Positions 14,998 to 32,243 of a stretch of 64,000 bases of DNA are shown here, one piece after another. How positions within the stretch are numbered: the stretch's first letter is position 1; every line of letters starts with the position of its first letter. The position numbers were made by a program, and so were the translations under genes. The stretch is from Crocinitomicaceae bacterium (GTDB taxonomy: Bacteria; Bacteroidota; Bacteroidia; Flavobacteriales_D; Crocinitomicaceae): positions 39 to 64,038 of the forward strand of contig JBIITO010000001.1 in the NCBI GenBank assembly GCA_044340465.1. The letters run 5' to 3'. The notes beneath the pieces are model-generated. The model did no database searches. It worked only from the letters and a program-made list of their open reading frames with translations, and was not told the DNA's origin.

Positions 14998-15726
14998 TCA
15001 GTTAGAAATGATGATCTTTTTAAAACAGCTTTTTTGATGTGTGTTAACTGTAATTAAATAGTATCCAGGATTCAATTGTTCGAATGGCAAACAAATTGTT
15101 CCGCCTTGGGCTTTGATTTGGCTCACAATCTGACCATTAGTTGCACTGATGAGCGCATCTTTAAACATTGGGTCTGTGATCGTAATATCGTTTTTTACCG
15201 GGTTTTGAATGCTGTACTCACATGGTATTGGATTTGATATAATTGACAGGCCAACTCCGGGATTCCATGATGATTTTGGAGTCCAATAGAAATTGCCCGG
15301 ACTTCCATTCATTAAAGCTGAGCATTCAAAAAAATCTGTAGGCTTAATAATTACATCTGAATTAGCAAGAATGAATCTAACTTTAACTAAGGTATTCTTA
15401 CTTTCAATATTGTAGTTTAAATTGGGACCTGACGTTGTATTTCTCAAATAACGATCAGAAGAATTAAAAAATGAACTAGTCTCCAAATTAATATCCACAG
15501 CTGTTGTGGCATCATAGGTTAATTTGCTTTCATTGAACTTAAATGAAAAGTCAAAATTACTTATGCCGCCAGTAGTGATCACATAAATCGGAAATTCGAA
15601 ATAAACACCTCCAGCACTATTATATGTTGTTGCACTAGAAAGGTCAAACACCAACGTGTCCTTATCCGATTGAGCAAAAAATAATGAATTACGAATTAAC
15701 AAAATAAGTAACAATAATCTTTTCAT
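14998..15726 (-). CDS. Small secreted protein: cohesin-like module plus T9SS type A-like C-terminal domain
   Basis: Start reset to the ATG giving MKRLLLLILLIRNSLFFAQ. Cohesin-like segment VYFEFPIYVITTGGISNFDFSFKFNESKLTYDAT...TLVKVRFILAN. C-terminus IQNPVKNDITIT...GQIV......LNPGYYLITVNT....KKIIIS resembles a Por secretion tail. Confidence 0.65.
   Translation of the reverse strand: MKRLLLLILLIRNSLFFAQSDKDTLVFDLSSATTYNSAGGVYFEFPIYVITTGGISNFDFSFKFNESKLTYDATTAVDINLETSSFFNSSDRYLRNTTSGPNLNYNIESKNTLVKVRFILANSDVIIKPTDFFECSALMNGSPGNFYWTPKSSWNPGVGLSIISNPIPCEYSIQNPVKNDITITDPMFKDALISATNGQIVSQIKAQGGTICLPFEQLNPGYYLITVNTHQKSCFKKIIISN
15277..15663 (-). other. Cohesin-like module
   Basis: See the 14998-15726 CDS. 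Paralogous to the module at 14454-14897. Confidence 0.45.
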
Positions 15727-15807
15727 AGCTCGATTGATTAGTCTTTGTACAAATAAGGAAGTCGCCACTCTAAAGAATGGCAACTTCCATTGAAATAAAT
15801 ATTGCGG

Positions 15808-18800
15808 TTATTTATTCACGACCACACGCTCCGTTTTACTGTATTGACCAGTAGCTATTTTAATGAAGTAGACTCCATTAGCATACAAACTCATGTCAAG
15901 TTCCACTTTTTCGTTCGCGTTAATATTGAATTGCTCCTTTACTTCCTGACCAGTAACTGTCATGATAGTCACTTGCGCATTCTGAGAAGAAACAATATTT
16001 AAAGCGCGCTGTGTTGGATTCGGGAATACATTAACAAAGTTTTCATTGATCACATTTACACCCAATGGGGTATTACTGAACACCAATTCTACAGGCTGAC
16101 CGTTTAACAATGCAAGCGTATTAGAGAAATCCATCTCTTTGATTTTGTTAACACTGGCATCGAATTTAACTTTAGCGAATGTTTCATTTGTGTTGAAGAA
16201 TTCCATATCGAGCGCTGTGTAACGAAGTGTCCGGTCATCCTCATTGAAATGAGCAAACCCTTCTGTTGTAGTACCGACAGAAACCATATCATTGAATGAA
16301 AATTTGTTTTCATCGAATTGGAATGCCAAGTCGATTGCATTTACGGGCTCCGATGCTTCGAAAGTTACAGGAACTTCAAAACTATTACCGTTAAAAACAG
16401 CCTTTTCAAGATCAACAATCACTTTTCCGAAAGTAGACTTCAACACACCATCCGCAGTGTATGCGTCATAGTTACCATCTACATCACCCAGCATAATACC
16501 CTTATAAGTCTCCTCAATAAGGTTCGGACAATTGGTGGTGTCTGATGCGCGTGCCGAAAGAACAGATGGTACGACTGGCACTTTATATTTGGAGTAACCA
16601 ACCAAGTCATTATTAGGGAACGTTGCAGAAATCTGATAAGCTGGTTTGGTCAGACGCATGGAATCCACAAAGATCCAGTCTTTTGATGGCTGTCCATTTG
16701 AAACTCCTTCAGCATTGTAGTTCCATGCCTGACGGAATTCACCAATGTTCAGTGTTGCTCTTTGCTTCAACTGAGAAATATCACCTGCACTCACAACACC
16801 GTCAAGGTTTACATCAAGAGCAAGAATCTGATAGATTGAAGGCGTAAAGGTTAAAGCATCATTCAAAAGAAGAGTCTTGCCAAGCACTGCATCATTAGCA
16901 TTGATAATTAATTGCACTGTTGATGTGTTGCTTACTTCTCTTTCAATACTAAGACCCAATCCATTTTTGAGATTATGTTCAAACTGACCGGTTGTATTAG
17001 GAGTAATAGAAACAGATTGATTAACTAAAAGAGAAGTTGTGTCAGCTCCTTTCACTCGCGTGATCAAGTAGCTGTTCGGCAATGAGGCGTCATAGCGGAT
17101 AGGCTGGTGGTTCTTCCAATGTCTTAATTTACCTTTGTAAGAAAGATTCTTAAATGATCTCCACTTACCTGCTGAGGCTGCTCTAGACTGAACCCCAGTA
17201 ATGTAACTTTCCTGAAGGAATGATGTTGAGAACGCTGCCGAATCTACAGCTGCGAAACCACCTGTTTTCTGAAATTCAACACAAAATACTTTTCCTGTAC
17301 CATTGAATTCTGAATTTGCAGGAGCACTACCCTTAAAGTTGATCTGGACAGTAAATTTACCATTCGCCGGATCATCCACATGAGATTCCTCCAATAATCC
17401 ACTACTCACCAAGTCCGAAAACAGAGTTACATTTCCTGTTGGGGTTACTTTCGTTTTGTCGTAATTCAAAACAACATCATAGCCGATGACATTATCAACG
17501 GGTGAAGTTATTGAAGCTGATAATGTCATGCACAAAGTATTGATATCACACGCCTGATCAACCACATCTAACGCATAAGGCAGTGCGTTTGGATCTGCAA
17601 TGTTCAAGGTTACACCTGCAGTTGTTGTTGTAGCATTTTTGTTATCCGTAGCACGAACTGTAAACACTTTAGAACCTGGAGTAGATGTCCAACTAAAGGC
17701 ATATGGAGCGCTGGCGTCTGAACCTACAACTGTACCATTCACCAAAAATTCAACTAATGTAACTGTACCGTCTGCATCAGATGCATTTGCTGTAATGTTT
17801 ACTGCTGTAGGAGCAATAACAGACTCAGAACCTGTAGGAGCAGTAATAGATACAGTTGGAGGAGTATTCAATGCTACTGTGATGTTTGCAACCGACGAAG
17901 TCGTTGTCAAACCTTGATCATCCGTAGCGATTGCTTTGATCTGGTGCGCACCGGCAACTGCGGTCCAATTAATAGAATAAGGCGAAGTGTTATCTGTTCC
18001 TATTGAAACATTATCCACAAGGAACTCAACTGAAGCCACAGATCCCGGAGCTGCATCACTCGCAGTTGCTGTTATAGAAACATTATCTTGCTCAATGGCT
18101 GTCGTAGGAGCAGAAACACTTACAGAAGGTGCTGTATTAGTAACAGCCGTTACCGAAATAGCGGTAGAGGTAGTTGAAGCACACTCGTTATCTAATGCAA
18201 CAGCAGTGAAAGAACGAGCACCTGCCACTGCCGTGTAAGAAATAGAATAAGGTGCCGTGTTATCTACTCCTAAAGAAGTAGCACCATCAAAGAACTCCAC
18301 CTGTGTTATTGTTCCACCGTTGACGTCCCCAGCAGTGGCCGTGATTGTCTGAGATGAACCCGTATACCAGGTTGCACCGGATGTAGGTGAGGTAATAGAA
18401 ACAGTTGGAGGTGTATTCGGTACATACGTTAGTGATGCATTTGTTAGCTCAGATCCCGTTGGGTTTGAAGCAACATAGTTCTCTGCAATACCTGTTGCAA
18501 TATTCTGGATCTGCACATTCAATTCGAAACTTAACTGACCATTTGTGGTGAACTGAGCAACCAGTACCCTGTTCTCCGCTGTTGGACCCACAATGCCACC
18601 CAATGCGGCTATTGAACCTGCGTCAATTAATACTGAGCCTCCATTGGTTTGATCTAAAACATCAAGAGCAGATCCTAACCCAAGTCCGTTAGGTACTACA
18701 TAATAAGTTGATCCAACAGGAGGAGTGTTTGGAACGAAACCGTCTTTTGCACCAGAGCCTGTAATCGGATCACCAAAACATCCACCAGGATTATTTGCAA

Positions 18801-19254
18801 GTATAGATTGAGCATTCCCTATCGAACCATCTGAATCCAATGATTTTTGAACCCCGATGTAACCACCTCCTGCACCTCCGGTAGCAAACCAAGAGTCGAT
18901 CATGGCTGTGTTTTTGCGAATGTTGGAAGCACTAATTGTATTTGGATTAAGTGATACCCCATAAGTTGGATCATTGTAAAAGGCTGTGGTAGTATTTACT
19001 TTGAGTGCATGTGCAGAATTTCCGAACAGTAGGTTAAACTTATACCCAGCAGCCATGTCAACATACACACGATAGGTCACCGAATTAGTCGTAAGAGGTG
19101 TTACGGCTCCATTTGCAGATGCATTGGAGACGTCAGCAGCATTTGCTTGGTAGTATTTCTCTACAATGATCCCTTCCAAACCTTGCGCATGCGTAAGATT
19201 TCCGATCATTGCAAGCCCAAATCCAAGCAATAATTTTTTTGTGTTCGTTTTCAT
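15808..19254 (-). CDS. 1148-aa multidomain T9SS cargo: unassigned LEGIxVEKYY head domain, 3 Ig-like repeats, cohesin-like module, dockerin-like Ca loops, second cohesin-like module, type A CTD
   Basis: Signal peptide MKTNTKKLLLGFGLAMIGNLTHAQ. Head domain residues ~25-278. Ig repeats ~280-555. Cohesin-like 1: VIGYDVVLNYDKTKVTPTG...GKVFCVEFQKT. Dockerin-like: ALDVNLDGVVSAGDISQLKQRA and LGDVDGNYDAY. Cohesin-like 2: FEVPVTFEASEPVNAIDLAFQFDENKFSF...ETFAKVKFDAS. CTD: VNVFPNPTQRALNI....VTIMTVTGQEV......LYANGVYFIKI......RVVVNK. Confidence 0.85.
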   Translation of the reverse strand: MKTNTKKLLLGFGLAMIGNLTHAQGLEGIIVEKYYQANAADVSNASANGAVTPLTTNSVTYRVYVDMAAGYKFNLLFGNSAHALKVNTTTAFYNDPTYGVSLNPNTISASNIRKNTAMIDSWFATGGAGGGYIGVQKSLDSDGSIGNAQSILANNPGGCFGDPITGSGAKDGFVPNTPPVGSTYYVVPNGLGLGSALDVLDQTNGGSVLIDAGSIAALGGIVGPTAENRVLVAQFTTNGQLSFELNVQIQNIATGIAENYVASNPTGSELTNASLTYVPNTPPTVSITSPTSGATWYTGSSQTITATAGDVNGGTITQVEFFDGATSLGVDNTAPYSISYTAVAGARSFTAVALDNECASTTSTAISVTAVTNTAPSVSVSAPTTAIEQDNVSITATASDAAPGSVASVEFLVDNVSIGTDNTSPYSINWTAVAGAHQIKAIATDDQGLTTTSSVANITVALNTPPTVSITAPTGSESVIAPTAVNITANASDADGTVTLVEFLVNGTVVGSDASAPYAFSWTSTPGSKVFTVRATDNKNATTTTAGVTLNIADPNALPYALDVVDQACDINTLCMTLSASITSPVDNVIGYDVVLNYDKTKVTPTGNVTLFSDLVSSGLLEESHVDDPANGKFTVQINFKGSAPANSEFNGTGKVFCVEFQKTGGFAAVDSAAFSTSFLQESYITGVQSRAASAGKWRSFKNLSYKGKLRHWKNHQPIRYDASLPNSYLITRVKGADTTSLLVNQSVSITPNTTGQFEHNLKNGLGLSIEREVSNTSTVQLIINANDAVLGKTLLLNDALTFTPSIYQILALDVNLDGVVSAGDISQLKQRATLNIGEFRQAWNYNAEGVSNGQPSKDWIFVDSMRLTKPAYQISATFPNNDLVGYSKYKVPVVPSVLSARASDTTNCPNLIEETYKGIMLGDVDGNYDAYTADGVLKSTFGKVIVDLEKAVFNGNSFEVPVTFEASEPVNAIDLAFQFDENKFSFNDMVSVGTTTEGFAHFNEDDRTLRYTALDMEFFNTNETFAKVKFDASVNKIKEMDFSNTLALLNGQPVELVFSNTPLGVNVINENFVNVFPNPTQRALNIVSSQNAQVTIMTVTGQEVKEQFNINANEKVELDMSLYANGVYFIKIATGQYSKTERVVVNK
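16069..16428 (-). other. Cohesin-like module 2 of the 1148-aa protein
   Basis: GKVIVDLEKAVFNGNSFEVPVTFEASEPVNAIDLAFQFDENKFSFNDMVS...ETFAKVKFDASVNK...LNGQPVE. Confidence 0.45.
16750..16821 (-). other. Dockerin-like / EF-hand-type Ca-binding loop plus helix
   Basis: I verified the hand translation of 16750-16821 as ALDVNLDGVVSAGDISQLKQRA (compare the dockerin F-hand D.N.DG.....D...L). A weaker second loop, GDVDGNYDAY, lies at ~16459-16494. Confidence 0.45.
17185..17589 (-). other. Cohesin-like module 1 of the 1148-aa protein
   Basis: LCMTLSASITSPVDNVIGYDVVLNYDKTKVTPTGNV...FTVQINFKG...GTGKVFCVEFQKTG. Confidence 0.45.
17590..18417 (-). repeat. Three tandem ~92-aa Ig-like (Big-type) coding repeats
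   Basis: NTPPTVSITSPTSG...ITATAGDVNGGTITQVEFFDGATSLGVDNTAPYSISYTAVAGARSFTAVALDN; NTAPSVSVSAPT...ITATASDAAPGSVASVEFLVDNVSIGTDNTSPYSINWTAVAGAHQIKAIATDD; NTPPTVSITAPT...ITANASDADGTVTLVEFLVNGTVVGSDASAPYAFSWTSTPGSKVFTVRATDN. Confidence 0.8.
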
Positions 19255-19278
19255 TTTTATTTTTGTTTTTTCGTGTTG

Positions 19279-19367
19279 TTTAATAGCACCTCGTAACGCA
19301 TTTAAAAAGCGATAAAAAGTACCTGTTTCACGGACAGGGAACTATGATTGTTACGAGGGCTATTAAA
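19279..19367 (-). ncRNA. Structured intergenic element: 18-bp interrupted stem enclosing a small hairpin (candidate processing site, attenuator or MITE-like unit)
   Basis: tttaatagc(a)cctcgtaac at 19279-19297 is the reverse complement of gttacgagg-gctattaaa at 19350-19367 (9+9 bp, one bulged base). Inner hairpin cctgt(19322-26)/acagg(19334-38). On the mRNA strand the inner hairpin is followed by UACUUUUUAU. Confidence 0.4.
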
Positions 19368-19376
19368 CGATTTTTC

Positions 19377-21536
19377 TTAGTTACAAGTCGTATTAAAACC
19401 AGGAGCGAAGATTAAGAAGTCATTCACGTCTGTGTCACCGTCTTTGTCCAAGTCGGTTGGACAAGCTTTTACACCCAAGGTTTGACCAAGCACTTGAGAA
19501 TAAGACCAGTCGGACAACCAGTTCTGACCAGGCGTAGAAGAGAACGCACCTCTATAAGGAGCAGGCTCAAAGAAACCATCAGATGGAGGTGTTGGGCATC
19601 CCGTGATAGATAGTGGCGTGGTTGGTACCGGATCATTTTTGGTGATGATCGCATTGGTGTTACCATTTATGGCAAATGCTGAACTGAAACCTGTAAGCGA
19701 AGCTAGTACATCGTTTTTGTCTGTTGTAGTGAATTGTGTTGTTTCGGTAGTGTTAGCAGCTGTACCATTGGCAGCCAAAGTGCTACCATTAATTACCAAA
19801 GAGTTTGTGTTTCCTATCAAGGTATTACACTTAATTTTCAAACTTTCAGTATTTGCATCAGGATCTTGCTGAGCCACTTCAGTAGTCCAGTTTTGGTATG
19901 AATTAAAGGTACGTCCATTCGTAATTCCTTTTTCAATATTGATACCGTTTTTAAATCCAGCAATAATTGAATTGTAAAGCTCACCTTCAGCACCATCTTT
20001 AAAGTTGGCTCCTGACAAAGATCGGTTGTCCGCTGAACCAGTAGTTTTACTGTTACCCATTAAAGTAAAGTTGTACAATATAGGATGTGATCTTGGTGTA
20101 GCGTTATTTGAATTGTCATCAGAATCTGCTTCAATACCATTATCATTGTCAGCACTAACATTGCCAGTACCACCCTGGTCAGCCTTCATTCCGTAAAAGA
20201 ATTGCGCTTTACCTGTCCAACCTAAATCGTAATCGAACATGTCATCGTTACCAAAAAGTGTAGTACAATATTTAAGATTCACTGTTCCACCGAAAACCTC
20301 GATATTATCATCTGCACACGAAACGATTTCAATGTGTTCAATTTTAGTACCACGACCAACCGAAGCAAGTGTTAAACCATTGATCTCAGAACCTACTAAA
20401 AGGTTCGCTCCTGAGTGACGGATGGATACATACGTCATTACACCTGAATTGTCATTGTCATCGAAAGAACCTGTATTTGTATAGTATGCACCAACATAAC
20501 TTGCTACGGTTCCACTAGTTCCAGAAGTTGGAGCAGTTCCAGAAGCAGGTGCGACATAAGTCATAGAACTAAAATAACCCGTTGCACCTGGATTTGGATA
20601 ATCTCCTCCAAAAGTGATTACATCACCTGCAGTAACAGCAGCAGTAAGGTTAGCTGAAAGGGTAAGAGTTGTCGTAAAAGGACCAGTACCTGTTTGGGCA
20701 ATACTTAAAATTGTCGAACCTGCCGCAATACCTGTTCCAGACACCGTTTGACCCTGAACGACGTAAGCAAGTGGTGAAGCCGAGCTAGAAAGTGTCAATT
20801 TGTTCTGTCCGGAAGCATTTGAGCCAGACACCGCATTTCCTGCCGTTAAATCAAACGTGTAGGACCCTGAAGGCGAAGTTGAAAGCACTGTACCATCTGG
20901 TATGCTCGTAGCCACCCCAAACTGATCTTGAGGATAAGAAGATGCAAAACCTTCAATTACTCCTAAACCATCTGCAACCGCCATTTTACCACCTTGCCCA
21001 GGAACGAACGGACCGTTGGTCGCCAACTTAAGGTTGTTGGATGCTTTGCCTAATACAAGCACCCCTCCCCACATACCTTTATTTGTAACTCCGTATGAGC
21101 CGTTAAGTGGGTCTGCGGCAGCCGTAAATACAATTGGACATGATTCTGTACCGGGAGCCATAATTTTACCTCCTCGTTCGATGATCAATGCCGTAGCAGC
21201 AGCAAGCGAGGGCGCAACGGTACCTTTTATTACTGTTCCTGGCTCGATGGTTAGCGTTGCACCAGGTGCCACATATATTTTTTGATCTAATGTCCAGATT
21301 TTGTCACACGTTAAAGTGACATTTCCCGTTATTTCACCTCCATAAGCAGAGGCGGCAAGGTTGGTCCACGCACCATTCGCCTGCGCCAAACTTTGAATCG
21401 TTTGCGTGGTTCGAGAGGTAGTGGAAGGACAGCCACAAGCTGCACCCAGGTTTTGTTGTGCAATTGACGCACTTGTTCCCAACACTGACATTGAGGCCAG
21501 CGTAAGTAGACTTTTCATCGTCTTTTTTGTTTTCAT
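19377..21536 (-). CDS. 719-aa secreted protein (possible parallel beta-helix-like repeats) ending in a dockerin-like Ca-binding motif; no T9SS CTD
   Basis: Signal peptide MKTKKTMKSLLTLASMSVLGTSASIAQ. G/T/S/N-rich with repeated short strands (IEHIEIVSCADDNIEVFGGTVNLKYCTTLFGNDDMFDYD). I hand-verified the last 29 aa as ACPTDLDKDGDTDVNDFLIFAPGFNTTCN. Confidence 0.7.
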   Translation of the reverse strand: MKTKKTMKSLLTLASMSVLGTSASIAQQNLGAACGCPSTTSRTTQTIQSLAQANGAWTNLAASAYGGEITGNVTLTCDKIWTLDQKIYVAPGATLTIEPGTVIKGTVAPSLAAATALIIERGGKIMAPGTESCPIVFTAAADPLNGSYGVTNKGMWGGVLVLGKASNNLKLATNGPFVPGQGGKMAVADGLGVIEGFASSYPQDQFGVATSIPDGTVLSTSPSGSYTFDLTAGNAVSGSNASGQNKLTLSSSASPLAYVVQGQTVSGTGIAAGSTILSIAQTGTGPFTTTLTLSANLTAAVTAGDVITFGGDYPNPGATGYFSSMTYVAPASGTAPTSGTSGTVASYVGAYYTNTGSFDDNDNSGVMTYVSIRHSGANLLVGSEINGLTLASVGRGTKIEHIEIVSCADDNIEVFGGTVNLKYCTTLFGNDDMFDYDLGWTGKAQFFYGMKADQGGTGNVSADNDNGIEADSDDNSNNATPRSHPILYNFTLMGNSKTTGSADNRSLSGANFKDGAEGELYNSIIAGFKNGINIEKGITNGRTFNSYQNWTTEVAQQDPDANTESLKIKCNTLIGNTNSLVINGSTLAANGTAANTTETTQFTTTDKNDVLASLTGFSSAFAINGNTNAIITKNDPVPTTPLSITGCPTPPSDGFFEPAPYRGAFSSTPGQNWLSDWSYSQVLGQTLGVKACPTDLDKDGDTDVNDFLIFAPGFNTTCN
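19380..19466 (-). other. C-terminal dockerin-like / EF-hand-type loop bracketed by two Cys
   Basis: C-PT-DLDKDGDTDVNDFLIF-APGFNTT-C-N. A D.D.DG.....D..L.F loop plus helix. Confidence 0.4.
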
Positions 21537-21686
21537 AAATAAATTATTTCTCGTTTACGAAGCAAAATTATGAGGCGGGTATGCCTTGAATATTAGCCCG
21601 AAATTATTTCTCTGCTAATCTTTTGCTCAAAAAGCGTACTAACGATATTAAGAATGCGTTAACTAGTTAACTATATTTAAAGAAGA

Positions 21687-22355
21687 CTAAAGACTTCTTA
21701 CCATTCCCATCTGGATACCACTGGAATATAAGCGACAAGGCAGCTCGCCTTTAGTCAATGGATTTATTTGAAATTGTCCGCAGAATTGCGTTCGAAAATT
21801 CCAGTTCTGATTCATACGAACACTTAGACCTATAGCCAACTGACCAAACACGGCAAAGGAAAAAGATCCCGGATAAACGGTAGTTCTTTGTAATGCATAG
21901 GCCTCATTGGTTCGATAAACAGCACGACTCTTTAATAAGACCGAAGAAACAAGCGCAGGTTGAAGAACCAACTGAAGTTTCTCATTTACTCTTTTGTAAA
22001 AATTACACCCTAGAGGAAACTGAAGGTAATGAAAGTTTAAGCGGTAGGATCGAAATCCATCCATGGTTTGGTCCTTATGTTGATACCCGTAATTACTATA
22101 TGCTATCCCCACGAAGAAAGATTTTCTCTCGGAAATTCCAAATTCATAGTTTATAAATGCACTACAACTAAGTTTTACCTCATGCGTACTGTCATGTTGC
22201 CGCTTGATCCAAGACAAATCTTCATTTTTTAATCCAAAAACACGATAGTTTACTGAGGGTGAAAAACCAAATGCCACAGCCTGCAATTTGTCTCGCTGAG
22301 CTAAACAACAGAGGGAAAGTGTAATAAATATTAAAAATAAAGTACTCGTTTTCAT
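21687..22355 (-). CDS. Outer-membrane beta-barrel protein (PorT/OmpW-size class)
   Basis: Signal peptide MKTSTLFLIFITLSLCCLAQ. 222 aa with alternating strands rich in aromatic residues and Gly. Confidence 0.5.
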   Translation of the reverse strand: MKTSTLFLIFITLSLCCLAQRDKLQAVAFGFSPSVNYRVFGLKNEDLSWIKRQHDSTHEVKLSCSAFINYEFGISERKSFFVGIAYSNYGYQHKDQTMDGFRSYRLNFHYLQFPLGCNFYKRVNEKLQLVLQPALVSSVLLKSRAVYRTNEAYALQRTTVYPGSFSFAVFGQLAIGLSVRMNQNWNFRTQFCGQFQINPLTKGELPCRLYSSGIQMGMVRSL

Positions 22356-22449
22356 ATGTAAATAATTTGTCTTTTAAAGGTCATATGGAATACGCCATGC
22401 TATTTTCATCGGTGCTTGCGCGAGGAGTTTGCATGGCTATTTCATAGAA

Positions 22450-23160
22450 TTAATCTTTTACGCAACGTACACTCATGCCATATTGGACATGAGCTAATTG
22501 CCTGAAAATGGTTTTTTTCTTCGCATCAAAATAACGATACCATGCTTCTGAACCATTGAGAGTTGAAGTCCAAAAGAAAGCCATATTCGCATTAACAGAG
22601 GCTATTCCATTGAATGTTTTGCACCCTGCCGGTAAAATTTTCATCTGATACTTATCGTTCCCGAAAGGCACACTATTCGTAGGCCAACCTTCCGAATAAT
22701 TGGGCAATAAGTCTTCCGCTTCATCAGTACCGCGCCATGCAAATGCGCCTACTTCATCATTCGACATGCCGATAAACCGTTCCAAGTCTTTCCAGTCTTC
22801 ATCTGTGGCAACATGCCAACCTGACGGTGCTAATTTCTTATCGCCTTGAATGGCTGACTGATTATATAAAAATCCATAAATCGAGTCGTTCAAAAAAGTG
22901 AAGCATGGGTCTGTACAGTTCGCCCACAAAGTATCTGAAGAAAAAATCGGAATATACTTGATTTCTGACCCATCGTTAAATTTGGTTACTTTCAGATTTT
23001 CTGCCATCCACCACTTTCCTCCAAGCAGAACTGTTTTGTAGACATTACCCTCAATATCCTTGACAGTTCCTGTTTGAATAGGCGCTTCTTGTGTTTCCTT
23101 TTTGCATGATGATACGGCTAAAGCGAATACCGTAATCATCCAAAAAAACTTAGTGTTCAT
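22450..23160 (-). CDS. FISUMP-domain (Fibrobacter succinogenes major paralogous domain) lipoprotein
   Basis: Start reset to MNTKFFWMITVFALAVSSC (lipobox-like Cys). GTVKDIEGNVYKTVLLGGKWWMAENLKVTKFNDGSEI is the characteristic D.(D/E)GN.Y.TV.IG.Q.WMAENL pattern. C-terminal WTST....AWYR......R.....G.SVRCVKD. Confidence 0.8.
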   Translation of the reverse strand: MNTKFFWMITVFALAVSSCKKETQEAPIQTGTVKDIEGNVYKTVLLGGKWWMAENLKVTKFNDGSEIKYIPIFSSDTLWANCTDPCFTFLNDSIYGFLYNQSAIQGDKKLAPSGWHVATDEDWKDLERFIGMSNDEVGAFAWRGTDEAEDLLPNYSEGWPTNSVPFGNDKYQMKILPAGCKTFNGIASVNANMAFFWTSTLNGSEAWYRYFDAKKKTIFRQLAHVQYGMSVRCVKD

Positions 23161-23161
23161 A

Positions 23162-24505
23162 TTAGTTGGATTTAACAAGGATGAGTGTTTTCACTTTTTC
23201 ACCAATTCGCACATTTAAATGATATAAACCATTTTCCAAATGAGAAACATCGAGGGATTCGCCAACGATTTTGTCCGAACCAGGAAGACTTTTTTGCAAT
23301 ACCTTCAACCCGTAGGCCGAGAATAACTCATAATCAATAGTCTCGTCTGTTATTCCCGAATATATATTCATTTTGAAATCTCCGTTGCTTGGGTTTGGAT
23401 AAACATCCAACTCAAATGATTCTCCCAAAAGCACAGGACACACTTGCGCGATATCTCTACCGTTGCAAAGCCCGGGATAGCAGCACAAGCCTTGCACATT
23501 GAAATTGGCAGTTGGATCAAAATTACATGCTATGGAATCCATACAACCGAGAATCAATGGCGTCAAACAGGTATTAGGTTGTAAACAAGCAACCCTCGGG
23601 TCGTATTCAAGGTAAGAGGGGTCATTGCAACCGCATTCCAGTGGATAGATCAAAAATGGATGGTATGTTTCCCCAGCTAATAACACACTATCTGAACCGA
23701 CAAAAACAAAGTTTTCCAGAGCACCATTTACCCATCCCTCTATTTCTAAATTCAGATGAAATGATAACTCCCCTTTGGTGGTGACCTGAGCAATGAGTAT
23801 CTGATTGCTATCAGGTATTACTCCAACCGTACCAGAGTTTCTTAATTCAAATTGGCGACTATTGAATTCCGTTCCGGGAACGACTGAGCCAAAAATGCTA
23901 CTATCAACTCCGGTTACAAAATCGGTAACTCCGTTAGCAAACCAGTTCGAGGGTTTTTTAACCAATGTATCCATACCATCTGCCACAGTTAATGGTCGCC
24001 CACAAGAAGGATCAATATTGGTAAGCAAACCAGAAGGTTTCATGGCGCTTCCGCCATCATTATTTATTCCCCCAATAAAAGAACCATCCAAATCAGAATC
24101 TTTTGGCAAGCCGAAATACGTTTTACTTCCCTGTGTTTTAGTTGTCTGACCAATTGTGAGCCAGCTATCCAAAGCAACGGTATTCTCTGAATAACGCGCT
24201 TTTACAAAATCTTTAGCAAAGGTTTGGCCATCAGACGAGTGATTATAAAAAGGTTCCGTACTCTGAATAATAAAGGGGTGGTTTTTATCGCCGTATAACT
24301 TTTTAAGAACATAACCGGGAGCTAGATCCACATAGATTCGATAGGTTGTGCTTCCAACCGGCAGTACTCCTCCAATGGTATTTGTAGCATCGTTAGCATC
24401 ACTCACATAATATTTTTCGACGAAGACTCTCTCCAGCTGAGCAAATCCCGATAAACCTAACAAAAGGAATATCAATAAAAGGCAATATTCAGTACTCTTT
24501 TTCAT
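23162..24505 (-). CDS. Secreted protein: unassigned LE..FVEKYY head domain, Cys-rich GC.D..ACNFDP-type modules, T9SS type A CTD
   Basis: Start reset to MKKSTEYCLLLIFLLLGLSGFAQ, 4 nt after the receptor stop. Head LERVFVEKYYVSDANDA...STTYRIYVDLAPGY...ILIAQVTTKGELSFHLNLEI. Cys-rich ECGCNDPSYLEYDP...GCMDSIACNFDPTANF. CTD VYPNPSNGDFKMNI...LENGLYHLNVRIGEKVKTLILVK. Confidence 0.8.
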   Translation of the reverse strand: MKKSTEYCLLLIFLLLGLSGFAQLERVFVEKYYVSDANDATNTIGGVLPVGSTTYRIYVDLAPGYVLKKLYGDKNHPFIIQSTEPFYNHSSDGQTFAKDFVKARYSENTVALDSWLTIGQTTKTQGSKTYFGLPKDSDLDGSFIGGINNDGGSAMKPSGLLTNIDPSCGRPLTVADGMDTLVKKPSNWFANGVTDFVTGVDSSIFGSVVPGTEFNSRQFELRNSGTVGVIPDSNQILIAQVTTKGELSFHLNLEIEGWVNGALENFVFVGSDSVLLAGETYHPFLIYPLECGCNDPSYLEYDPRVACLQPNTCLTPLILGCMDSIACNFDPTANFNVQGLCCYPGLCNGRDIAQVCPVLLGESFELDVYPNPSNGDFKMNIYSGITDETIDYELFSAYGLKVLQKSLPGSDKIVGESLDVSHLENGLYHLNVRIGEKVKTLILVKSN

Positions 24506-24509
24506 TTCG

Positions 24510-27500
24510 CTATAATTTGTAGGCAAGGCCAAGTGTAAATACTGTTCCGTATCTGAAACGGTCAAAATCAGCGTACCCATCGTTCAATTTATAGGCTCTT
24601 AGAACAGGTGCATTAAGAATGTCTCTGACCGTTAAGCTAGAAGAAAAATGTTTTCCTAAGGTTTTGGTGACCTTAAAGTCAAGAGAATGTCTCGGCATTT
24701 CATAAATATCTGGCCTTCCTTTTAAAATCCCTGTGATCACAAGCCTCGGTCCTTGCACGTTGTAGCTCACTGTTGCTGTCAATCCTAGGGAATCCGATTT
24801 ATAGGATAAAATACCGTTAATTATGTATGGCGCCTGACCAAACATTGTTCGTTGAACGGTATCAATTGGTATATATTCGATTTGATTTCCTGTCAAGATG
24901 ATAAAATCCTTTCGGACATATTGAGAATACGACTTGACAAAAGTTAAATTGGTTCTAAATTCCAAAAATTTACCAATTTGCTTTTTTCCTTCCAGTTCGA
25001 TTCCTGCGACATAAGAATTCTCATTATTATCCCAGGTGATTCCAGAACTACCAAAACCCATTTCAATATGGTTTGTAAAGTCTTTATAAAATAAACTGAA
25101 TGAAACATTATCGTTATTCCTAAAATAGGACTCAAATCTAAAGTCGAAATTATTGACCTCGGTAACCTTAAGGTTCGGATTTCCATAAATTAAGGTTCTG
25201 AACTCGTTATCATAAACGGCAGATGCACTCATCTCACGTATATTTGGACGAGCTACGGTCTGACTGAAATTGAATCGTAGATTCGTAGTTACTTTCTCTT
25301 CATTTCCTAACTTGAGTATCAGACTTCCCGATGGTAATAAATCAACTTGATCAATAATTCCCGGATTAATCAATGGATATCCAGGAATATTTACCCTTCT
25401 TCCGTCATTGATACCATAACCCAAAAGATCATATATGTATATATCAGACAACAACCCTGCTTTCTCGACGCGCAAACCACCATTGAATCGGAGCCTTTTG
25501 AAGACCTCGTAATCGACTAATCCATATCCGGATAGAATTGTACTATTTCCTATCGTTCGATTCCAATCCCAAATTTGATCCTGATAATAGAAATCAATTT
25601 GACCATTGGAAATCATGAACTTATCAGGAATTAAGTACATGTCAATATCATCGTTTTGCAACCCTTCGAATGCAACTTTATTCCCCTGAGCAAGAAAATA
25701 TTCATCCTGTTTAGAATTTCTATGCATCGCTTGATAAGCTGATCCAAACTTAAGTTTTCTTACAAGCTTCTTTTCCGGTTTAATCAAAGGAACCTCAATG
25801 GATAATCGGGTATCGAGAAGGTTCTCACTAAGGTACCTGTAGTAGCGACGAATACCATCGCCTGCATTTGGTGAAAACTGATACCCCTCAATAGAGTCAC
25901 CTATTCTAGTTGCGTCGTACTGTGTTAATTTAAAATCGGGGGCCACGCTGCTTCCCCGAGTGTAGGATACATTAGATTCGATTTTAATGTTGCTTTTTGG
26001 AAGAAGATGCTGTGATGATAATTGATAAATAAGTTGTTTGCGTTGTTCGTAGAAAATGTTTTTTCGAACACGATATTCTTGAAAATCATTCGTGTCCCAT
26101 TGGGTGGAAAAATTGGCCACGTCATTCGTTCCAATATAATTTGGCATAAACAAAACGGATACCTTATTATAGTCGTTTATCTTATACGCCAAATTGCTCA
26201 GCATGCTCCATGAATTTGTTTCACGACTGATGCGCGCATCATCAATAAATTCAATTGGATAATTAACTTCCTCTGCACCTATTCTTTGTGACACGCCGTT
26301 CGCATCGTAACGGATGGTATTTCCGTAACGAAATCCAAAAATATAGCCCAGGGGCCTGCCGAACAATTTAACCTGATCACCGATACTGAAATTTTGAGTG
26401 AAATTCAATGGTGCTTTGCGATACTTTACATTCCAATTATTGGCAAAGCCATTATTAAAATCAGTGCCTTCAGGGTTAATTAGAGCATATGCTTTTTGTG
26501 CATATTGAGAGTTATACTTTTTGAGCGCCGTTTGATAGGCAGACTGATCATTCATTTGAGAAGGGTTCAACAACCCTAACTGTATCAAACCTAATCTTAA
26601 ATAAGTTTCTTCCTCTGGACTTCCATCTGACCATCCCCTGACACCCAATTGGTCAAAATAACTTCCTAAGCCAAGCGCCACCATTTCCTGATAATTCGTT
26701 GGCTGAAGGATGGGAGCAGAAATTGTCGACTGAGAATCATCTCGTGAACGCAGACCACTATCAAAACCTAACCAATCCGTAGAACTTCGGTCTGAGGTAA
26801 CAAAATCACGAAATGTACTTTGGGCATTGTAGCCAATTTGTGACTCTACATTTACCATTAACTTATCTGGGTAATCTTTGGTTTCTACAGAAAGGTAGGC
26901 TCCTGTCCAATCACCCGGCAGATCCGGACTCGCCGTTTTCGTAATCACTATGTTGTCCACAAGGCTTGTAGGAATGATGTCAAGTTTGATATTGTTGGTT
27001 AAGGGGTCTAGAGTTGGTATTCTTGAACCGTTGAGGGTGGTTTTTACATATCTATCACCTATGCCCCTTACTGTTATTAATCCACCACTTGTAGAAACGC
27101 CCGAAACACGTGCGACAGCCGCTGTAACATTGGCATCACCGGTTTTTTTCATCGTTTCGGAGGAAATATAATCCAAGGTAGTAGCCGAATTGATTTTCAT
27201 TTTTTCCATGTAATAATCACTCGCCCTTACCTGTTTGGCAACCACTTTAACCTCCTTAATATCCCTAAGTTTATATGCTGTCATGGAGAAGTCTTTCACC
27301 AAAACCTGTTCATCTCTTAGTTTAATTCGCTGCGTGATGGTATCCATTCCCACAAAGGTTACCGAAAGCGTTTTTTCGTCGGATGTTTTGATCTGAAACG
27401 TGTAGTTACCATCCAAATCCGTTTTGGTGCCTACAGATGGCTCTTCTTTCAATGAAAGTCGTGCACCAATAATGGCTTCTCCATTTTCATCAGTCACCTT

Positions 27501-27572
27501 TCCAGTCAACGTTCCCTGTGAATAAGCTAGGTGAATAGAAAAAATGACAAAAAGGCACAAAAACGTTTTCAT
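24510..27572 (-). CDS. TonB-dependent outer-membrane receptor with N-terminal carboxypeptidase-regulatory-like domain
   Basis: Start reset to the ATG giving MKTFLCLFVIFSIHLAYSQ. GTLTGKVTDENGEAIIGARLSL...TDLDGNYTF (CarbopepD_reg-like). Plug-like VARVSGVSTSGGLITVRGIGDRYVKTTLNGSRIP. ~800-aa barrel-length remainder. Confidence 0.9.
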   Translation of the reverse strand: MKTFLCLFVIFSIHLAYSQGTLTGKVTDENGEAIIGARLSLKEEPSVGTKTDLDGNYTFQIKTSDEKTLSVTFVGMDTITQRIKLRDEQVLVKDFSMTAYKLRDIKEVKVVAKQVRASDYYMEKMKINSATTLDYISSETMKKTGDANVTAAVARVSGVSTSGGLITVRGIGDRYVKTTLNGSRIPTLDPLTNNIKLDIIPTSLVDNIVITKTASPDLPGDWTGAYLSVETKDYPDKLMVNVESQIGYNAQSTFRDFVTSDRSSTDWLGFDSGLRSRDDSQSTISAPILQPTNYQEMVALGLGSYFDQLGVRGWSDGSPEEETYLRLGLIQLGLLNPSQMNDQSAYQTALKKYNSQYAQKAYALINPEGTDFNNGFANNWNVKYRKAPLNFTQNFSIGDQVKLFGRPLGYIFGFRYGNTIRYDANGVSQRIGAEEVNYPIEFIDDARISRETNSWSMLSNLAYKINDYNKVSVLFMPNYIGTNDVANFSTQWDTNDFQEYRVRKNIFYEQRKQLIYQLSSQHLLPKSNIKIESNVSYTRGSSVAPDFKLTQYDATRIGDSIEGYQFSPNAGDGIRRYYRYLSENLLDTRLSIEVPLIKPEKKLVRKLKFGSAYQAMHRNSKQDEYFLAQGNKVAFEGLQNDDIDMYLIPDKFMISNGQIDFYYQDQIWDWNRTIGNSTILSGYGLVDYEVFKRLRFNGGLRVEKAGLLSDIYIYDLLGYGINDGRRVNIPGYPLINPGIIDQVDLLPSGSLILKLGNEEKVTTNLRFNFSQTVARPNIREMSASAVYDNEFRTLIYGNPNLKVTEVNNFDFRFESYFRNNDNVSFSLFYKDFTNHIEMGFGSSGITWDNNENSYVAGIELEGKKQIGKFLEFRTNLTFVKSYSQYVRKDFIILTGNQIEYIPIDTVQRTMFGQAPYIINGILSYKSDSLGLTATVSYNVQGPRLVITGILKGRPDIYEMPRHSLDFKVTKTLGKHFSSSLTVRDILNAPVLRAYKLNDGYADFDRFRYGTVFTLGLAYKL

Positions 27573-27592
27573 CGGAATCAAATTTTCTGTGC

Positions 27593-28690
27593 TTAGTTTT
27601 TAATCAGTTGGCGAACCCATTGTTGATCACCAACGGTCAATTTCAAAAGGTAAACGCCCTTTTCCATCTCATTAAGGTCAACCGATGAAACCAGTTTTCC
27701 ATTGGTTGAACTAACTTTTTGTTCTTGCAAGACCTGTCCGTTAAGATTCATTAACATCCAATTATCTGAAGGTTTCGTTACCTGATAATTCGATGCGAAT
27801 ATGGTGGCTTTGTCTAGTGTTGGGTTGGGATACAGAATTACCTCTATTGATTGATTTGAGAAGTCGTTCAGACCAACATTGTCCTGAGGAGATGAATTAT
27901 AAATCAACGTTTTTTCAAGTCGTTCGTTACCAACGGGATTCGAAGCAACATATATTTCACTTTCTCCAGGAATTGGTGTGCCAAGTTGAATGTTTAATTG
28001 AAAACTGAAATCTCCATCTGTCGTAAACTGTCCAAGTAGTACATTATTACTTGATGTCACACCTTGCACCCCACCCAATGCAGCAATCGCAGCCCCTTTG
28101 GTTAGGAATGAACCTCCTACCGTTTGGTCAAAAATATTCAGTTCATTTGTAAAACCAAGCGTATTCAATGCAGTTGGAGAACCAGGCAGCAGACCGTCTT
28201 GCGAACCAGGACCAGTAATAGGAAGACCTGCACTTGCATCGCTATTAGCAAGAATACCTTGATTATTTCCGATAGACCCATCCGAATCTTCTGTTTTGGG
28301 CACCCCCATCAAACCATTTGCAACTCCTCCGATTGTGAAATATGAATCGATCAACTGGGTGTTTTTTTTGGTATTATTCAAACTAGTGCCGCTGTAAAAA
28401 GGCACACCAAAATTGGGATCATTGTAAAATGAAGTGGTGGTTTCAACACGGAAATCGTGGTTGGCATCACCATACATCTGAATAACTCTATAACCAGGCA
28501 AAAGATTTGCATAAATCCTATAGGTTACTGAACCAACATGAAGAGGATACGGCGCATCATTATTTTTTGCATCTATTGAATCTTCTTTGTTAGAAACATA
28601 ATATTTCTCGACGAAAATCCCTTCTAAGCCATTTTGAGCGTTAAGTCCAAATGCCGAAAATATTCCAAGGGTAAGTAATGTTTTTTTCAT
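27593..28690 (-). CDS. Secreted protein: unassigned LEGIFVEKYY head domain plus T9SS type A CTD
   Basis: Signal peptide MKKTLLTLGIFSAFGLNAQ. Head NGLEGIFVEKYYVSNKED...SVTYRIYANLLPGY...NVLLGQFTTDGDFSFQLNIQL...IYVASNP. CTD ILYPNPTLDKATIF...MEKGVYLLKLTVGDQQWVRQLIKN. Confidence 0.8.
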   Translation of the reverse strand: MKKTLLTLGIFSAFGLNAQNGLEGIFVEKYYVSNKEDSIDAKNNDAPYPLHVGSVTYRIYANLLPGYRVIQMYGDANHDFRVETTTSFYNDPNFGVPFYSGTSLNNTKKNTQLIDSYFTIGGVANGLMGVPKTEDSDGSIGNNQGILANSDASAGLPITGPGSQDGLLPGSPTALNTLGFTNELNIFDQTVGGSFLTKGAAIAALGGVQGVTSSNNVLLGQFTTDGDFSFQLNIQLGTPIPGESEIYVASNPVGNERLEKTLIYNSSPQDNVGLNDFSNQSIEVILYPNPTLDKATIFASNYQVTKPSDNWMLMNLNGQVLQEQKVSSTNGKLVSSVDLNEMEKGVYLLKLTVGDQQWVRQLIKN

Positions 28691-28692
28691 TT

Positions 28693-29526
28693 TTATTTTG
28701 ATTTATTTCTTCTAGATTTTTGATTAATTAAAACGAGTGATTCTATCGTAAACTCATTTTCCAAAGGGTTTCTTGCTACAAAGCGTTGCGCCTTTCCATC
28801 AGGAGTACCTATTTGAATATTCAATTCATACTCAAGCCTTCCGTCGGTGGTAAGTTGGGCAATCAAAACCTTATTATGATGTAAAGAATCAGCGCCAAGA
28901 CTTCCTTTACCCATACAGGCCCATGCACCATTGTTAACATAAAATTCACCACCCTGTTTTGCTCCGAAAACTTGTATGGCAGAATCGATTCCAAAAAAAG
29001 TATGAAGAGGCATGCCTACAGTGTACTTCAAACCGTCTTTTTCGCTAGGCAGAACAGAAACCTCATTTGTGCGATTGATAAGGAAGCCCTCTTCAAATTC
29101 AATAAATCCCGAGGTATCATCATCCTCTTTTGGTATTCCAAGACAAAGCTCGCCGGCCGTACCGACAGAAAGCCATGAATCGAGCATAACCGTATTTTTA
29201 CCCAAACTCCTTCTCGGAATTACACTAGCCACTGCGCCTCCTTTATCGGTATTATTAAAAAAATAAGTGTTAGTTCTGAAAAAAAGAGGATGTTCCTTTG
29301 ATCCATAAGCCGCTTGAAAACTATAGCCTGGTAAAAGATCAACGTATATTCGATATGTTGTGGCGTTCCTCTTAAGTTCTCCAGCATAGGAGTTAGCCTT
29401 TAAATCAGCTTTTCCCGAAACATAATATTTTTCAACAATGATGCCTTCTAGCCCCTGCTTTGTGCTTTGACAAAAGACGTTTCCAATAAAGAAGAATAGA
29501 ATAAATAATGTGTAAGCTAATCTCAT
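28693..29526 (-). CDS. Secreted (possibly lipidated) protein consisting only of the unassigned LEGIIVEKYY domain
   Basis: Start reset to the ATG giving MRLAYTLFILFFFIGNVFCQ. QGLEGIIVEKYYVSGKAD...ATTYRIYVDLLPGY...KVLIAQLTTDGRLEYELNIQI...RFVARNP. No CTD; ends in the basic tail KSRRNKSK. Confidence 0.75.
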   Translation of the reverse strand: MRLAYTLFILFFFIGNVFCQSTKQGLEGIIVEKYYVSGKADLKANSYAGELKRNATTYRIYVDLLPGYSFQAAYGSKEHPLFFRTNTYFFNNTDKGGAVASVIPRRSLGKNTVMLDSWLSVGTAGELCLGIPKEDDDTSGFIEFEEGFLINRTNEVSVLPSEKDGLKYTVGMPLHTFFGIDSAIQVFGAKQGGEFYVNNGAWACMGKGSLGADSLHHNKVLIAQLTTDGRLEYELNIQIGTPDGKAQRFVARNPLENEFTIESLVLINQKSRRNKSK

Positions 29527-29676
29527 AGTAAGCAACGCAAACTGCGCGATGCAAGATTAGACAGAGCAGATAACTTTCAAATTAAATGTAAATTATTGTT
29601 AAGTTATGAAAGCAGCCTTTGGGTTATCAGAATTTTAAGCCTGTGTTTTGGAAATGTAAAAAGCAAACAAGATTTA

Positions 29677-31071: not shown

Positions 31072-31194
31072 TCGAGTTGCAGGTTGCGAATGTTAAGAAA
31101 ATAAATCCCTCATGTTTTCCCGATTTTATAATTGCGTTATGCTTTTGTAAACCGAAGTCAGGGTTCAGAGAAGTATCGTAACCTTGAGAAAAAA

Positions 31195-31839: not shown

Positions 31840-31930
31840 GTTAATCGCGAGATTCATAATTATTTAATATCTGCTTAATATTTAGGTAACATTTAAGTAG
31901 GTCATGAAACCTACATTTAGAGAAAAAAGT

Positions 31931-32242: not shown

Positions 32243-32243
32243 C

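Follow-up and report, generated by a model that had tools for sequence, protein, structure and literature searches.

A secreted head domain outside known families, encoded four times around a TonB-dependent receptor gene in Crocinitomicaceae

Why does a single operon of a Crocinitomicaceae bacterium encode the same secreted head domain of ~245 aa in four genes (A, B, C and D), each time on a different C-terminus, and what might such a domain do next to a TonB-dependent receptor? The question was addressed for a 64-kb stretch of DNA, here called the window, and for related loci and homologues of the domain in other genomes.

Four copies of one head domain

The window contains exactly four genes with the head domain. 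The open reading frames are found where the original prediction had placed them, all on the minus strand, and have the following parts:

28693..29526, minus strand: gene A (277 aa), signal peptide, head and short Lys/Arg-rich tail
about 28729-29454, minus strand: head of A
27593..28690, minus strand: gene B (365 aa), signal peptide, head, short linker and type A T9SS CTD
about 27905-28630, minus strand: head of B
about 27596-27835, minus strand: type A T9SS CTD of B (PF18962, 1e-10)
23162..24505, minus strand: gene C (447 aa), signal peptide, head, Cys-rich module and type A T9SS CTD
about 23645-24439, minus strand: head of C
about 23411-23638, minus strand: Cys-rich module of C
about 23165-23404, minus strand: type A T9SS CTD of C
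15808..19254, minus strand: gene D (1148 aa), signal peptide, head, Big_7 repeats, cohesin/dockerin-like modules and CTD
about 18424-19182, minus strand: head of D
about 17650-18402, minus strand: three Big_7 repeats of D
about 16087-17637, minus strand: cohesin-dockerin-cohesin-like region of D
about 15811-16029, minus strand: type A T9SS CTD of D

The N-terminal ~250 aa of the four proteins were expected to align, and they do so with pairwise identities of 34-49% and 52-58 invariant columns in the alignment of the four copies. Pairwise BLASTP comparisons with composition-based statistics and SEG give E-values of 2e-38 (A-B), 2e-28 (A-C), 2e-32 (A-D), 2e-33 (B-C), 6e-66 (B-D) and 1e-21 (C-D). 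The similarity thus withstands correction for composition, which had been named as a possible source of a spurious alignment. Scanned over all six reading frames of the window, an HMM of 188 heads matches only heads A to D (E 1e-87 to 1e-101) and detects no fifth head. Together, the two analyses rule out a chance or compositional resemblance. The motifs LEG..VEKYY, TYR[IV]Y, H, KNT...DS, Q.TT.G and LN[IVL][QE]I listed for the domain are all present, with small deviations in two copies: A has FFN for FYN and DDDTSG for D.DGS, and C has ENT for KNT and lacks the terminal ..NP.

The C-termini differ as described before, with nothing but a short Lys-rich tail after the head in A, a CTD in B, a Cys-rich module and a CTD in C, and Ig repeats, cohesin/dockerin-like modules and a CTD in D. 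Taking a sorting domain of ~75 aa at the C-terminus, with a score above the curated cut-off, together with an N-terminal Sec signal as the mark of T9SS type A cargo, B, C and D all belong to this class (42, 34.3 and 52 bits for PF18962, cut-off 27); TIGR04183 matches as well. In D, the cohesin scores 24.7 bits against a cut-off of 24.1, and the dockerin 21.4 against 22.9. Searches of Pfam and NCBIfam found no T9SS CTD in A. Anchoring of A as a lipoprotein, in the manner of SusD/E/F, can be dismissed, since 23 homologues of the A type have N-termini ending in ...SQ or ...AQ, with no conserved lipobox Cys. As it has no CTD and no lipobox, and only a signal-peptidase-I signal, A would be periplasmic by default. 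The mature N-terminus of the head protein is Gln. An alternative TTG start of gene A lies at 29535.

A large family without recognised relatives

The original prediction could not place the domain in any family, and database searches fare no better. At E<=10, Pfam gives no match for three of the four heads and only a spurious one to Bactofilin (0.15) for head C, and NCBIfam, including its choice-of-anchor models, gives none. The precomputed column of a newer Pfam reads '-' for homologues that consist of the head alone, and sequence-profile searches of the PDB return no match. The AlphaFold model of the A head (pLDDT 89.3) has a beta-sandwich core. For assignment to a fold, a Foldseek E-value of at most 0.001 and a meaningful TM-score were required, and with this model neither the PDB (solved structures) nor BFVD (predicted viral structures) yields a match at that level; the best E-values are 0.04 (query-normalised TM <=0.27) and 0.06, respectively. 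Type II cohesins share the beta-sandwich core and are among the least bad Foldseek matches (target-normalised TM 0.32-0.37), but the probability is at most 0.25, the rmsd is 9-12 A, and the ordered loops of the head at residues 85-165 (~80 residues) have no counterpart. A divergent cohesin is ruled out by these Foldseek probabilities, the lack of a Pfam match, and hhalign against the cohesin-like modules of the locus (probability 0.1%). DUF4465/BtuJ, HmuY, choice-of-anchor and CBM families were rejected because none of their profiles, including the Pfam CBM models, matches the head at E<=10 in Pfam or NCBIfam. A literature search found no description of the domain or the operon. The head is thus a real, previously unannotated family with no match among Pfam, NCBIfam, PDB and BFVD.

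The family comprises at least 1408 clusters at 50% identity. In a set of 148 representatives, 136 of 147 begin with the first head right at the mature N-terminus, and at least 109 of the 148 have a T9SS CTD at their end. Apart from the CTD, the head is fused solely to Ig-like or PKD spacers and to TSP3/EF-hand, MAM and cohesin/dockerin modules. None of these partners is catalytic, so that the idea of a portable head on interchangeable anchors extends to the family at large. Some members carry two to four heads in tandem, and some are very long, up to 2182 aa, with SprB, MAM or TSP3 repeats.

Related loci were compared in ~75 Flavobacteriales from different species-level genomes, mostly Crocinitomicaceae or Cryomorphaceae MAGs, among them MAGs from Lake Mendota, Lake Erken and rivers. 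Head identities are 0.53-0.64 within and 0.29-0.47 between classes, and the nearest neighbour is of the same class for 188 of 188 heads. The four genes thus represent ancient orthologous groups that are separate across the ~75 genomes. This rules out recent local duplication and implies that selection maintains the fourfold set. At a level of at least 95% identity, 28 columns are conserved across all 188 heads, among them those of 14 polar residues (E27, E32, D41, Y58, R59, N91, D116, D136, D164, N218, Q224, T226, T227 and N236), an indication of a single common site or ligand. Cysteine is not conserved at any position, and the one His (H79) is conserved at 85-95%.

The operon around the receptor

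The remaining members of the operon, and the hairpin that follows it, are:

24510..27581, minus strand: TonB-dependent receptor (1023 aa), CarboxypepD_reg-like N-terminal extension, Plug and large barrel
22450..23178, minus strand: FISUMP (Fib_succ_major) lipoprotein (242 aa), lipobox ...AVSSC, then KKE
21687..22355, minus strand: small outer-membrane beta-barrel protein (OMP_b-brl_2, 222 aa)
19377..21536, minus strand: beta-helix protein (719 aa), signal peptide, no CTD
15757..15788, minus strand: hairpin with a 14-bp stem, then a T-rich tail

The conserved order is A, B, TonB-dependent receptor, C, FISUMP lipoprotein, small outer-membrane barrel (in many, not all, related loci), beta-helix protein and D. 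A precedes B in 62/62 loci, C follows the receptor in 56/56, and the FISUMP lipoprotein follows C in 55/56. Adjacency to TonB-dependent receptors, to which the original prediction had drawn attention, holds for class B without exception, with the receptor directly after B in 65/65. In the window, the gaps around A, B, the receptor and C are only 2-11 nt, and gene C starts 4 nt past the receptor stop codon. The hairpin, 20 nt past the stop codon of D, is the probable end of the operon. Further downstream, two T9SS proteins (261 aa and 993 aa) have a cohesin-like module in common with D. In at least one genome (locus L078), a beta-helix/D/cohesin-like module occurs without a receptor nearby. Six of the eight operon proteins are annotated as 'hypothetical'.

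Metagenomes from lakes and rivers repeatedly contain Crocinitomicaceae, Cryomorphaceae and related Flavobacteriales, and the operon is nearly unchanged across loci. A possible shared regulatory motif, a TAAnnTTGCA-like box, is visible by eye upstream of A in several loci; among the 61 loci compared for such a motif, the automated start-codon calls are unreliable. Rfam at gathering thresholds detects no riboswitch, for cobalamin or otherwise, in the 64 kb, and riboswitch control of the operon was discarded on this basis. A link to the upstream phosphate genes (porin O/P, PhoU_div, PHO4) was also discarded, as the upstream genes differ in other loci.

The receptor has its best family match to TIGR01782 (3e-44), a partial match that at 151.5 bits lies below the cut-off of 310. 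Characterised TIGR01782 members import carbohydrates. The receptor does not match the SusC/RagA model, and no protein of the locus has a SusD-family match in Pfam or NCBIfam. The adjacent TIGR04056-type susC and susD pair that defines a canonical SusC/SusD polysaccharide utilisation locus is thus absent, and this SusD-less order is repeated in 56-65 related loci. Nor does the conserved block contain a regulator, an inner-membrane transporter or a catabolic enzyme, which makes it unlike a full polysaccharide utilisation locus. The FISUMP lipoprotein contributes a lectin fold to the neighbourhood. Homologues of the beta-helix protein match Pfam Beta_helix_4, and the protein contains acidic clusters that are invariant and ends in a dockerin/FG-GAP-like loop bracketed by Cys. 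Its best fold matches are polysaccharide lyases, GH110/glycosidases and phage depolymerases (E 3e-4); with TM-scores of at most 0.21 on a model of mediocre quality (pLDDT 71), they indicate generic beta-helix resemblance only. PDB sequence searches were of no help with the receptor, the FISUMP protein or the beta-helix protein.

Proposed ligand capture and its alternatives

Most likely, the head is a new kind of nutrient-capture module. In its fuller form, in which a ligand-capture domain, probably for a glycan, serves a SusD-less TonB-dependent transporter, with B, C and D displayed on the surface and A in the periplasm, the proposal stands at about an even chance. Capture is suggested by the strict linkage to the receptor across ~75 loci, by the fusion of the head to spacers and anchors only, in an N-terminal position distal from the anchor, and by the tandems of two to four heads, as seen in carbohydrate-binding modules when avidity matters. 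The lack of SusD in the operon and a receptor outside the SusC/RagA model speak for a SusD-less mode. A glycan would fit the large receptor (1023 aa) with its match to a carbohydrate-importing family, the lectin-fold lipoprotein, and the lyase-, glycosidase- or depolymerase-like fold of the beta-helix protein. The head model itself matches no known CBM, lectin or other binding fold (Pfam at E<=10; Foldseek against PDB and BFVD). Against capture, the L078 module has no receptor nearby, and so many invariant polar residues could also belong to an enzyme or a metal site.

The four proteins would be exported by Sec and cleaved by signal peptidase I, and B, C and D would then cross the outer membrane by type IX secretion and be attached via their CTDs. 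The same head would thereby be held at three distances from the surface, by a short linker (B), a Cys-rich module (C) and a long Ig/cohesin stalk (D). The heads may bind rather than cleave a common ligand, concentrate it at the receptor and stand in for the missing SusD-type partner; A possibly accepts it on the periplasmic side. Among possible ligands, an oligo- or polysaccharide is the most likely, perhaps an acidic exopolymer of algae or cyanobacteria that the beta-helix protein would cut. The bolder claim that one structurally new head replaces SusD-type partners, with three surface heights and periplasmic A relaying a single ligand, is tentative and less probable than capture as such. In a more radical variant, CTD-less A and the beta-helix protein could get to the surface along a pathway not yet recognised, for instance by riding piggy-back on T9SS cargo or by an Oar-like passage through the receptor.

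Known systems offer partial parallels. Like the operon described here, SusC/SusD loci with SusE/F or SGBP-B in Bacteroidota combine a TonB-dependent transporter carrying a CarboxypepD_reg-type extension with co-transcribed surface proteins, distal binding modules on Ig-like spacers and paralogous binders in one operon. However, they have a SusD homologue and lipoprotein binders, whereas the binders here are T9SS-anchored, the head belongs to no known family, the receptor falls outside the SusC/RagA model, and the conserved block is without a regulator or recognised glycoside hydrolases. A closer precedent for the missing SusD is an outer-membrane protein cluster of Cytophaga hutchinsonii, also in the Bacteroidota, which lacks an SGBP-A/SusD homologue and in which a CBM-like surface binder is essential for substrate use (PMC12016534). 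This protein, CHU_1279, binds cellulose and has two CBM-like domains recognisable by structure prediction (PMC12016534). Compared by description only, it differs from the present set of four paralogues, three with T9SS CTDs, with an unmatched fold.

The cohesin-like modules raise the alternative that the heads form the tips, adhesive or structural, of a cohesin/dockerin-held surface assembly (D, the 261-aa and 993-aa proteins, and the beta-helix protein) for attachment to particles, algae or prey, with the receptor merely a neighbour or anchor. This would account for the cohesin and dockerin-like modules of D, the module shared with the two downstream proteins, the invariant dockerin-like loop that ends the beta-helix protein, the receptor-free L078 module, and the very long family members with SprB, MAM or TSP3 repeats. 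However, A, B and C flank the receptor invariably and, in the window, at gaps of a few nucleotides, an arrangement that speaks for joint function with the transporter. A is devoid of any anchor or scaffold module, and the modules taken for cohesin and dockerin score at the Pfam thresholds or below them. We consider an adhesive function unlikely.

Linkage to the receptor is equally compatible with capture of a small, scarce, non-glycan nutrient (a metal chelate, haem, a cofactor or a peptide), in analogy to a hemophore or BtuJ/DUF4465. BtuG/BtuJ (DUF4465) and HmuY are likewise small secreted or surface beta-rich proteins beside a TonB receptor, for which they capture a scarce ligand, and beta-sandwich surface binders beside TonB receptors are known for B12 (bioRxiv 10.1101/2025.08.21.671476). 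The many invariant Asp, Glu, His, Asn and Gln residues of the head and the lack of glycan catabolic genes in the operon fit such a ligand, and YcnI, a copper-binding beta-sandwich, is among the weak Foldseek matches, but its probability is at most 0.28. Moreover, the head matches no DUF4465, BtuG, HmuY or metal-binding model (Pfam, E<=10), and the window holds no cobalamin-linked or other riboswitch. The absence of a conserved Cys, the incomplete conservation of H79, and Gln in place of the N-terminal His needed for a His-brace also speak against such a ligand. The receptor is SusC-sized, much larger than those for siderophores or B12. Tandem multi-head proteins and long stalks suit polymeric ligands, and multi-head architectures and T9SS anchoring set the system apart. 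A small-nutrient ligand is still less likely than adhesion.

Least probable is that the head is an enzyme, such as a novel glycan-cleaving or -modifying beta-sandwich on the surface whose products the receptor imports: its 14 polar residues (including Glu, Asp, Tyr, Arg and Gln) and nearly invariant His are more uniform across the four classes and the family than expected for binding modules of diverged specificities, and it is never fused to another catalytic domain, but it resembles no beta-sandwich hydrolase or lyase family in fold or sequence, binding modules more typically show tandems of two to four heads and a copy that lacks a CTD and is probably periplasmic, and the beta-helix protein is already a separate candidate enzyme.

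With at least 1408 clusters and a confident model without structural relatives, the head would merit a new Pfam entry and an experimental structure, and protein A, with ~250 aa and no anchor, would be an easy first construct. If the head is indeed a capture module, it would represent a new class of partner for TonB-dependent transporters, delivered by type IX secretion instead of lipoprotein export, and would broaden the picture of nutrient acquisition in Bacteroidota beyond the SusC/SusD model.

A shared N-terminal domain outside known families

The stretch 15808-29535 holds eight co-directional genes, all on the minus strand. Four of them, A to D, encode a signal peptide directly followed by a homologous block of about 245 residues, referred to here as the head.

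Genes encoding head proteins
28693-29526, minus strand: A, 277 aa
27593-28690, minus strand: B, 365 aa
23162-24505, minus strand: C, 447 aa
15808-19254, minus strand: D, 1148 aa

In a MAFFT alignment of A to D, the heads are 34-49% identical in pairs and have more than 50 invariant columns. The similarity is far beyond chance. BLASTP with composition-based statistics and SEG aligned about 250-275 residues with E-values from 1e-21 (C-D) to 6e-66 (B-D), and an HMM built from 188 heads picked out exactly A to D in the six-frame translation of the window (E 1e-87 to 1e-101), with no fifth copy in any reading frame. The original prediction that the four copies align is thus borne out; the motifs that it listed recur, with small departures in A and C.

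The prediction had also failed to place the head in any family, and the searches agree. At E<=10, Pfam-A yielded no family for the heads (the sole line was a spurious Bactofilin match at 0.15), and NCBIfam release 20 yielded no match. Homologues consisting only of a head carry no domain in the precomputed Pfam column, which is recent enough to include PF28492, and profile searches against PDB sequences returned nothing. The AlphaFold2 model of A (mean pLDDT 89.3, pTM 0.86, 53-sequence alignment) predicts a beta-sandwich that includes three short helices; about 80 residues (85-165) form well-ordered loops. Foldseek found no match to this model at E<=0.001 in PDB or BFVD, a comparison that supports the absence of a solved relative rather than a new fold; the top PDB matches (bunyavirus Gc, flocculins, type II cohesins, YcnI) had query-normalised TM-scores of at most 0.27. 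The head is without a relative among solved structures (PDB) and curated families.

The head defines a domain family that is fairly large and unannotated, and its model is confident. Searching 1.84 billion 50%-identity representatives exhaustively with HMMER gave at least 1408 clusters at E<=1e-3, of which 616 reached E<=1e-30, and a word-indexed search gave at least 1892 head-bearing proteins, whose names are without exception 'hypothetical' or 'T9SS type A sorting domain-containing'. Among the 148 best family representatives, the first head lies at the mature N-terminus in 136/147, at least 109/148 end in a T9SS sorting domain, and 16 have two to four tandem heads. Besides the head, 45 long members contain Big_7, PKD and further Ig-like domains, TSP3/EF-hand, MAM, dockerin and SprB repeats, with no catalytic fusion partner among them. 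This fits the earlier description of a portable head on interchangeable anchors, as do the four tails in the window, which differ as had been described.

In A, only about 12 residues follow the head. A-type proteins (28693-28730, minus strand; L002-L037 among related loci) usually have a Lys-rich tail, e.g. ...NSENKKNKSKKK, which could mediate electrostatic attachment to an anionic surface; no lipobox Cys is conserved across A-type homologues. In B, a short linker leads to a type A T9SS sorting domain, and in C a Cys-rich stretch precedes a sorting domain of the same type. The Cys-rich module of C (residues ~290-365, nt ~23411-23638, minus strand) carries a GC.D..ACNFDP.A-type motif and matched no Pfam family. 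In D, three Big_7 Ig domains are followed by a region scoring as cohesin (two stretches, 24.7 bits, cut-off 24.1) and dockerin (21.4 bits, cut-off 22.9), and by a type A T9SS sorting domain. The mature N-termini of the head proteins are Gln (cleavage A/Q or S/Q), which agrees with the 'Q-rule' described for Bacteroidota signal-peptidase-I substrates.

The two C-terminal modules of D (residues ~540-690 and 930-1056, nt ~16087-17637) align with a cohesin-like N-terminal module of about 130 aa common to a 261-aa T9SS protein (14998-15783, minus strand) and a 993-aa PKD protein (11982-14963, minus strand). Pfam Cohesin is borderline on these modules, with 24.7 bits on D and 15.2 bits on the 993-aa protein. 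The head itself is not a cohesin by profile-profile comparison with the same-locus modules (probability 0.1%). In one related locus (L078), D is likewise followed by a homologue of the 261-aa protein. The 993-aa protein combines nine PKD repeats with a type B T9SS sorting domain (CHU_C/TIGR04131), and 1 nt after its gene lies one for a PorP/SprF-like membrane protein (TIGR03519, 87.1 bits, cut-off 90.55; the pair spans 10970-14963, minus strand). Type B cargo is usually paired with its own PorP/SprF, a pattern that the two genes fit.

A conserved operon around a TonB-dependent receptor

Scanning one genome per species identified 310 head-encoding stretches. The best 80 come almost all from MAGs of freshwater Flavobacteriales, labelled Crocinitomicaceae, Cryomorphaceae or 'Flavobacteriia', along with a few bins whose labels are obviously wrong. 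Gene order was tested by tblastn of the window proteins against 75 loci. Wherever the contig extends, the order is A, B, TonB-dependent receptor, C, FISUMP lipoprotein, (small outer membrane barrel), beta-helix protein, D. For class B, the suggested check for heads beside such receptors gave a uniform answer.

Gene order across related loci
A directly before B: 62/62 loci
Receptor directly after B: 65/65 loci
C after receptor: 56/56 loci
FISUMP after C: 55/56 loci

The head genes belong to a TonB-receptor/T9SS operon that is highly conserved in freshwater Flavobacteriales. In the window, the gaps are 2 nt (A-B), 11 nt (B-receptor) and 4 nt (receptor-C), and a 14-bp hairpin lies 3' of D. Genes for a regulator, an inner-membrane transporter or a cytoplasmic enzyme are missing from the conserved block. 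Head identity is 0.53-0.64 within and 0.29-0.47 between the four orthologous classes, and the nearest neighbour belongs to the own class for 188/188 heads; the four paralogues are therefore older than the divergence of the genomes, each being maintained. Two loci encode B as one polypeptide that carries two or three heads in tandem. B-class genes of some genomes have two to four (L044 3650-6208; L057 413-3733; proteins P0121-P0137; P0121 has four in 1036 aa). The beta-helix/D/cohesin-like sub-module also occurs alone (L078), and in L077 a beta-helix gene precedes three proteins with five heads.

A candidate promoter box of the form TAAnnTTGCA, recognised by eye, precedes the A start by about 20-35 nt in several loci (window 29536-29676; L001, L002, L003, L009, L016, L022) and is similar to the -7 element of Bacteroidota promoters, and the closest relatives have further upstream blocks in common, CATAACTTAA..ATAATTTACA.TTAA.

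The genes flanking the conserved block vary between genomes. A phosphate-related cluster (31132-36124, upstream of mnmE) is not found beside the operon in other genomes.

Phosphate-related genes
32244-33461, minus strand: phosphate-selective porin O/P
33830-34477, plus strand: PhoU_div/DUF47
34502-36124, plus strand: PHO4/Pit transporter

At the other end, an ORF exceeding 1700 aa is cut off by the window start (1-5124, minus strand) and adjoins a gene (5135-7699, minus strand) whose 854-aa product carries SprB repeats and a type B T9SS domain. Both products are probably large surface proteins for gliding or adhesion.

The 1023-aa receptor consists of a CarboxypepD_reg-type N-terminal extension, a Plug and a barrel of large size. 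The sole family match for it, TIGR01782, is under the cut-off; SusC/RagA models do not match it, and the locus has no SusD homologue. The FISUMP family has a C-type-lectin-like fold, a variable ligand-binding scaffold in DGR systems. The beta-helix protein, with a Sec signal and, like A, no T9SS domain, belongs to a family with more than 5000 matches (Pfam Beta_helix_4, all 'hypothetical'). The protein's Asp/Glu clusters are invariant, as is a dockerin/FG-GAP-like loop at the C-terminus. This Cys-bracketed loop, CPTDLDKDGDTDVNDFLIFAPGFNTTC (19377-19460, minus strand), is invariant in 42 homologues and looks like one dockerin or FG-GAP calcium-binding repeat. The predicted structure (pLDDT 71) indicates no more than a generic right-handed beta-helix, a form that glycan-cleaving enzymes use; its top matches are Klebsiella K1 capsule lyase, GH110 galactosidases, phage depolymerases and GH87 (E-values to 3e-4, TM-scores at most 0.21).

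A possible role in ligand capture

From the genomic context, we infer with about an even chance that the head is a ligand-capture module serving the TonB-dependent receptor. Several features together favour this role: linkage to the receptor is strict, SusD is missing, the head sits distally on spacers and T9SS anchors, none of its fusion partners is catalytic, and some variants carry several heads in tandem. It is unlikely that the head is instead part of an adhesin or scaffold, a reading tied to the cohesin/dockerin-like modules. The best guess for the ligand is a glycan, in view of the size and type of the receptor, the lectin-fold lipoprotein and the beta-helix protein; a non-glycan small molecule is a somewhat less probable choice than even the adhesin role. 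Least probable is that the head is itself catalytic.

All four head classes have 14 invariant polar residues in common, which suggests that the classes may all bind the same thing, or have a common Ca2+ or cofactor site, rather than diverged specificities. A common ligand would be compatible with the same binder being displayed at different distances from the membrane, long in D, intermediate in C and short in B, and with A acting as the same binder inside the periplasm.

Functionally, the operon is like SusC/SusD loci with extra surface glycan-binding proteins, although it lacks a susC/susD pair. Nearer still is the SusD-less chu_1276-1280 cluster of Cytophaga hutchinsonii, in which a CBM-like surface protein is essential (PMC12016534). 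BtuG, BtuJ and HmuY are likewise surface binders that supply TonB transporters. The head matches no domain family of these systems, and anchoring is through T9SS instead of lipidation. The operon thus belongs to none of them. A to D nevertheless resemble transporter-associated surface capture proteins, and we class them with that type of system.
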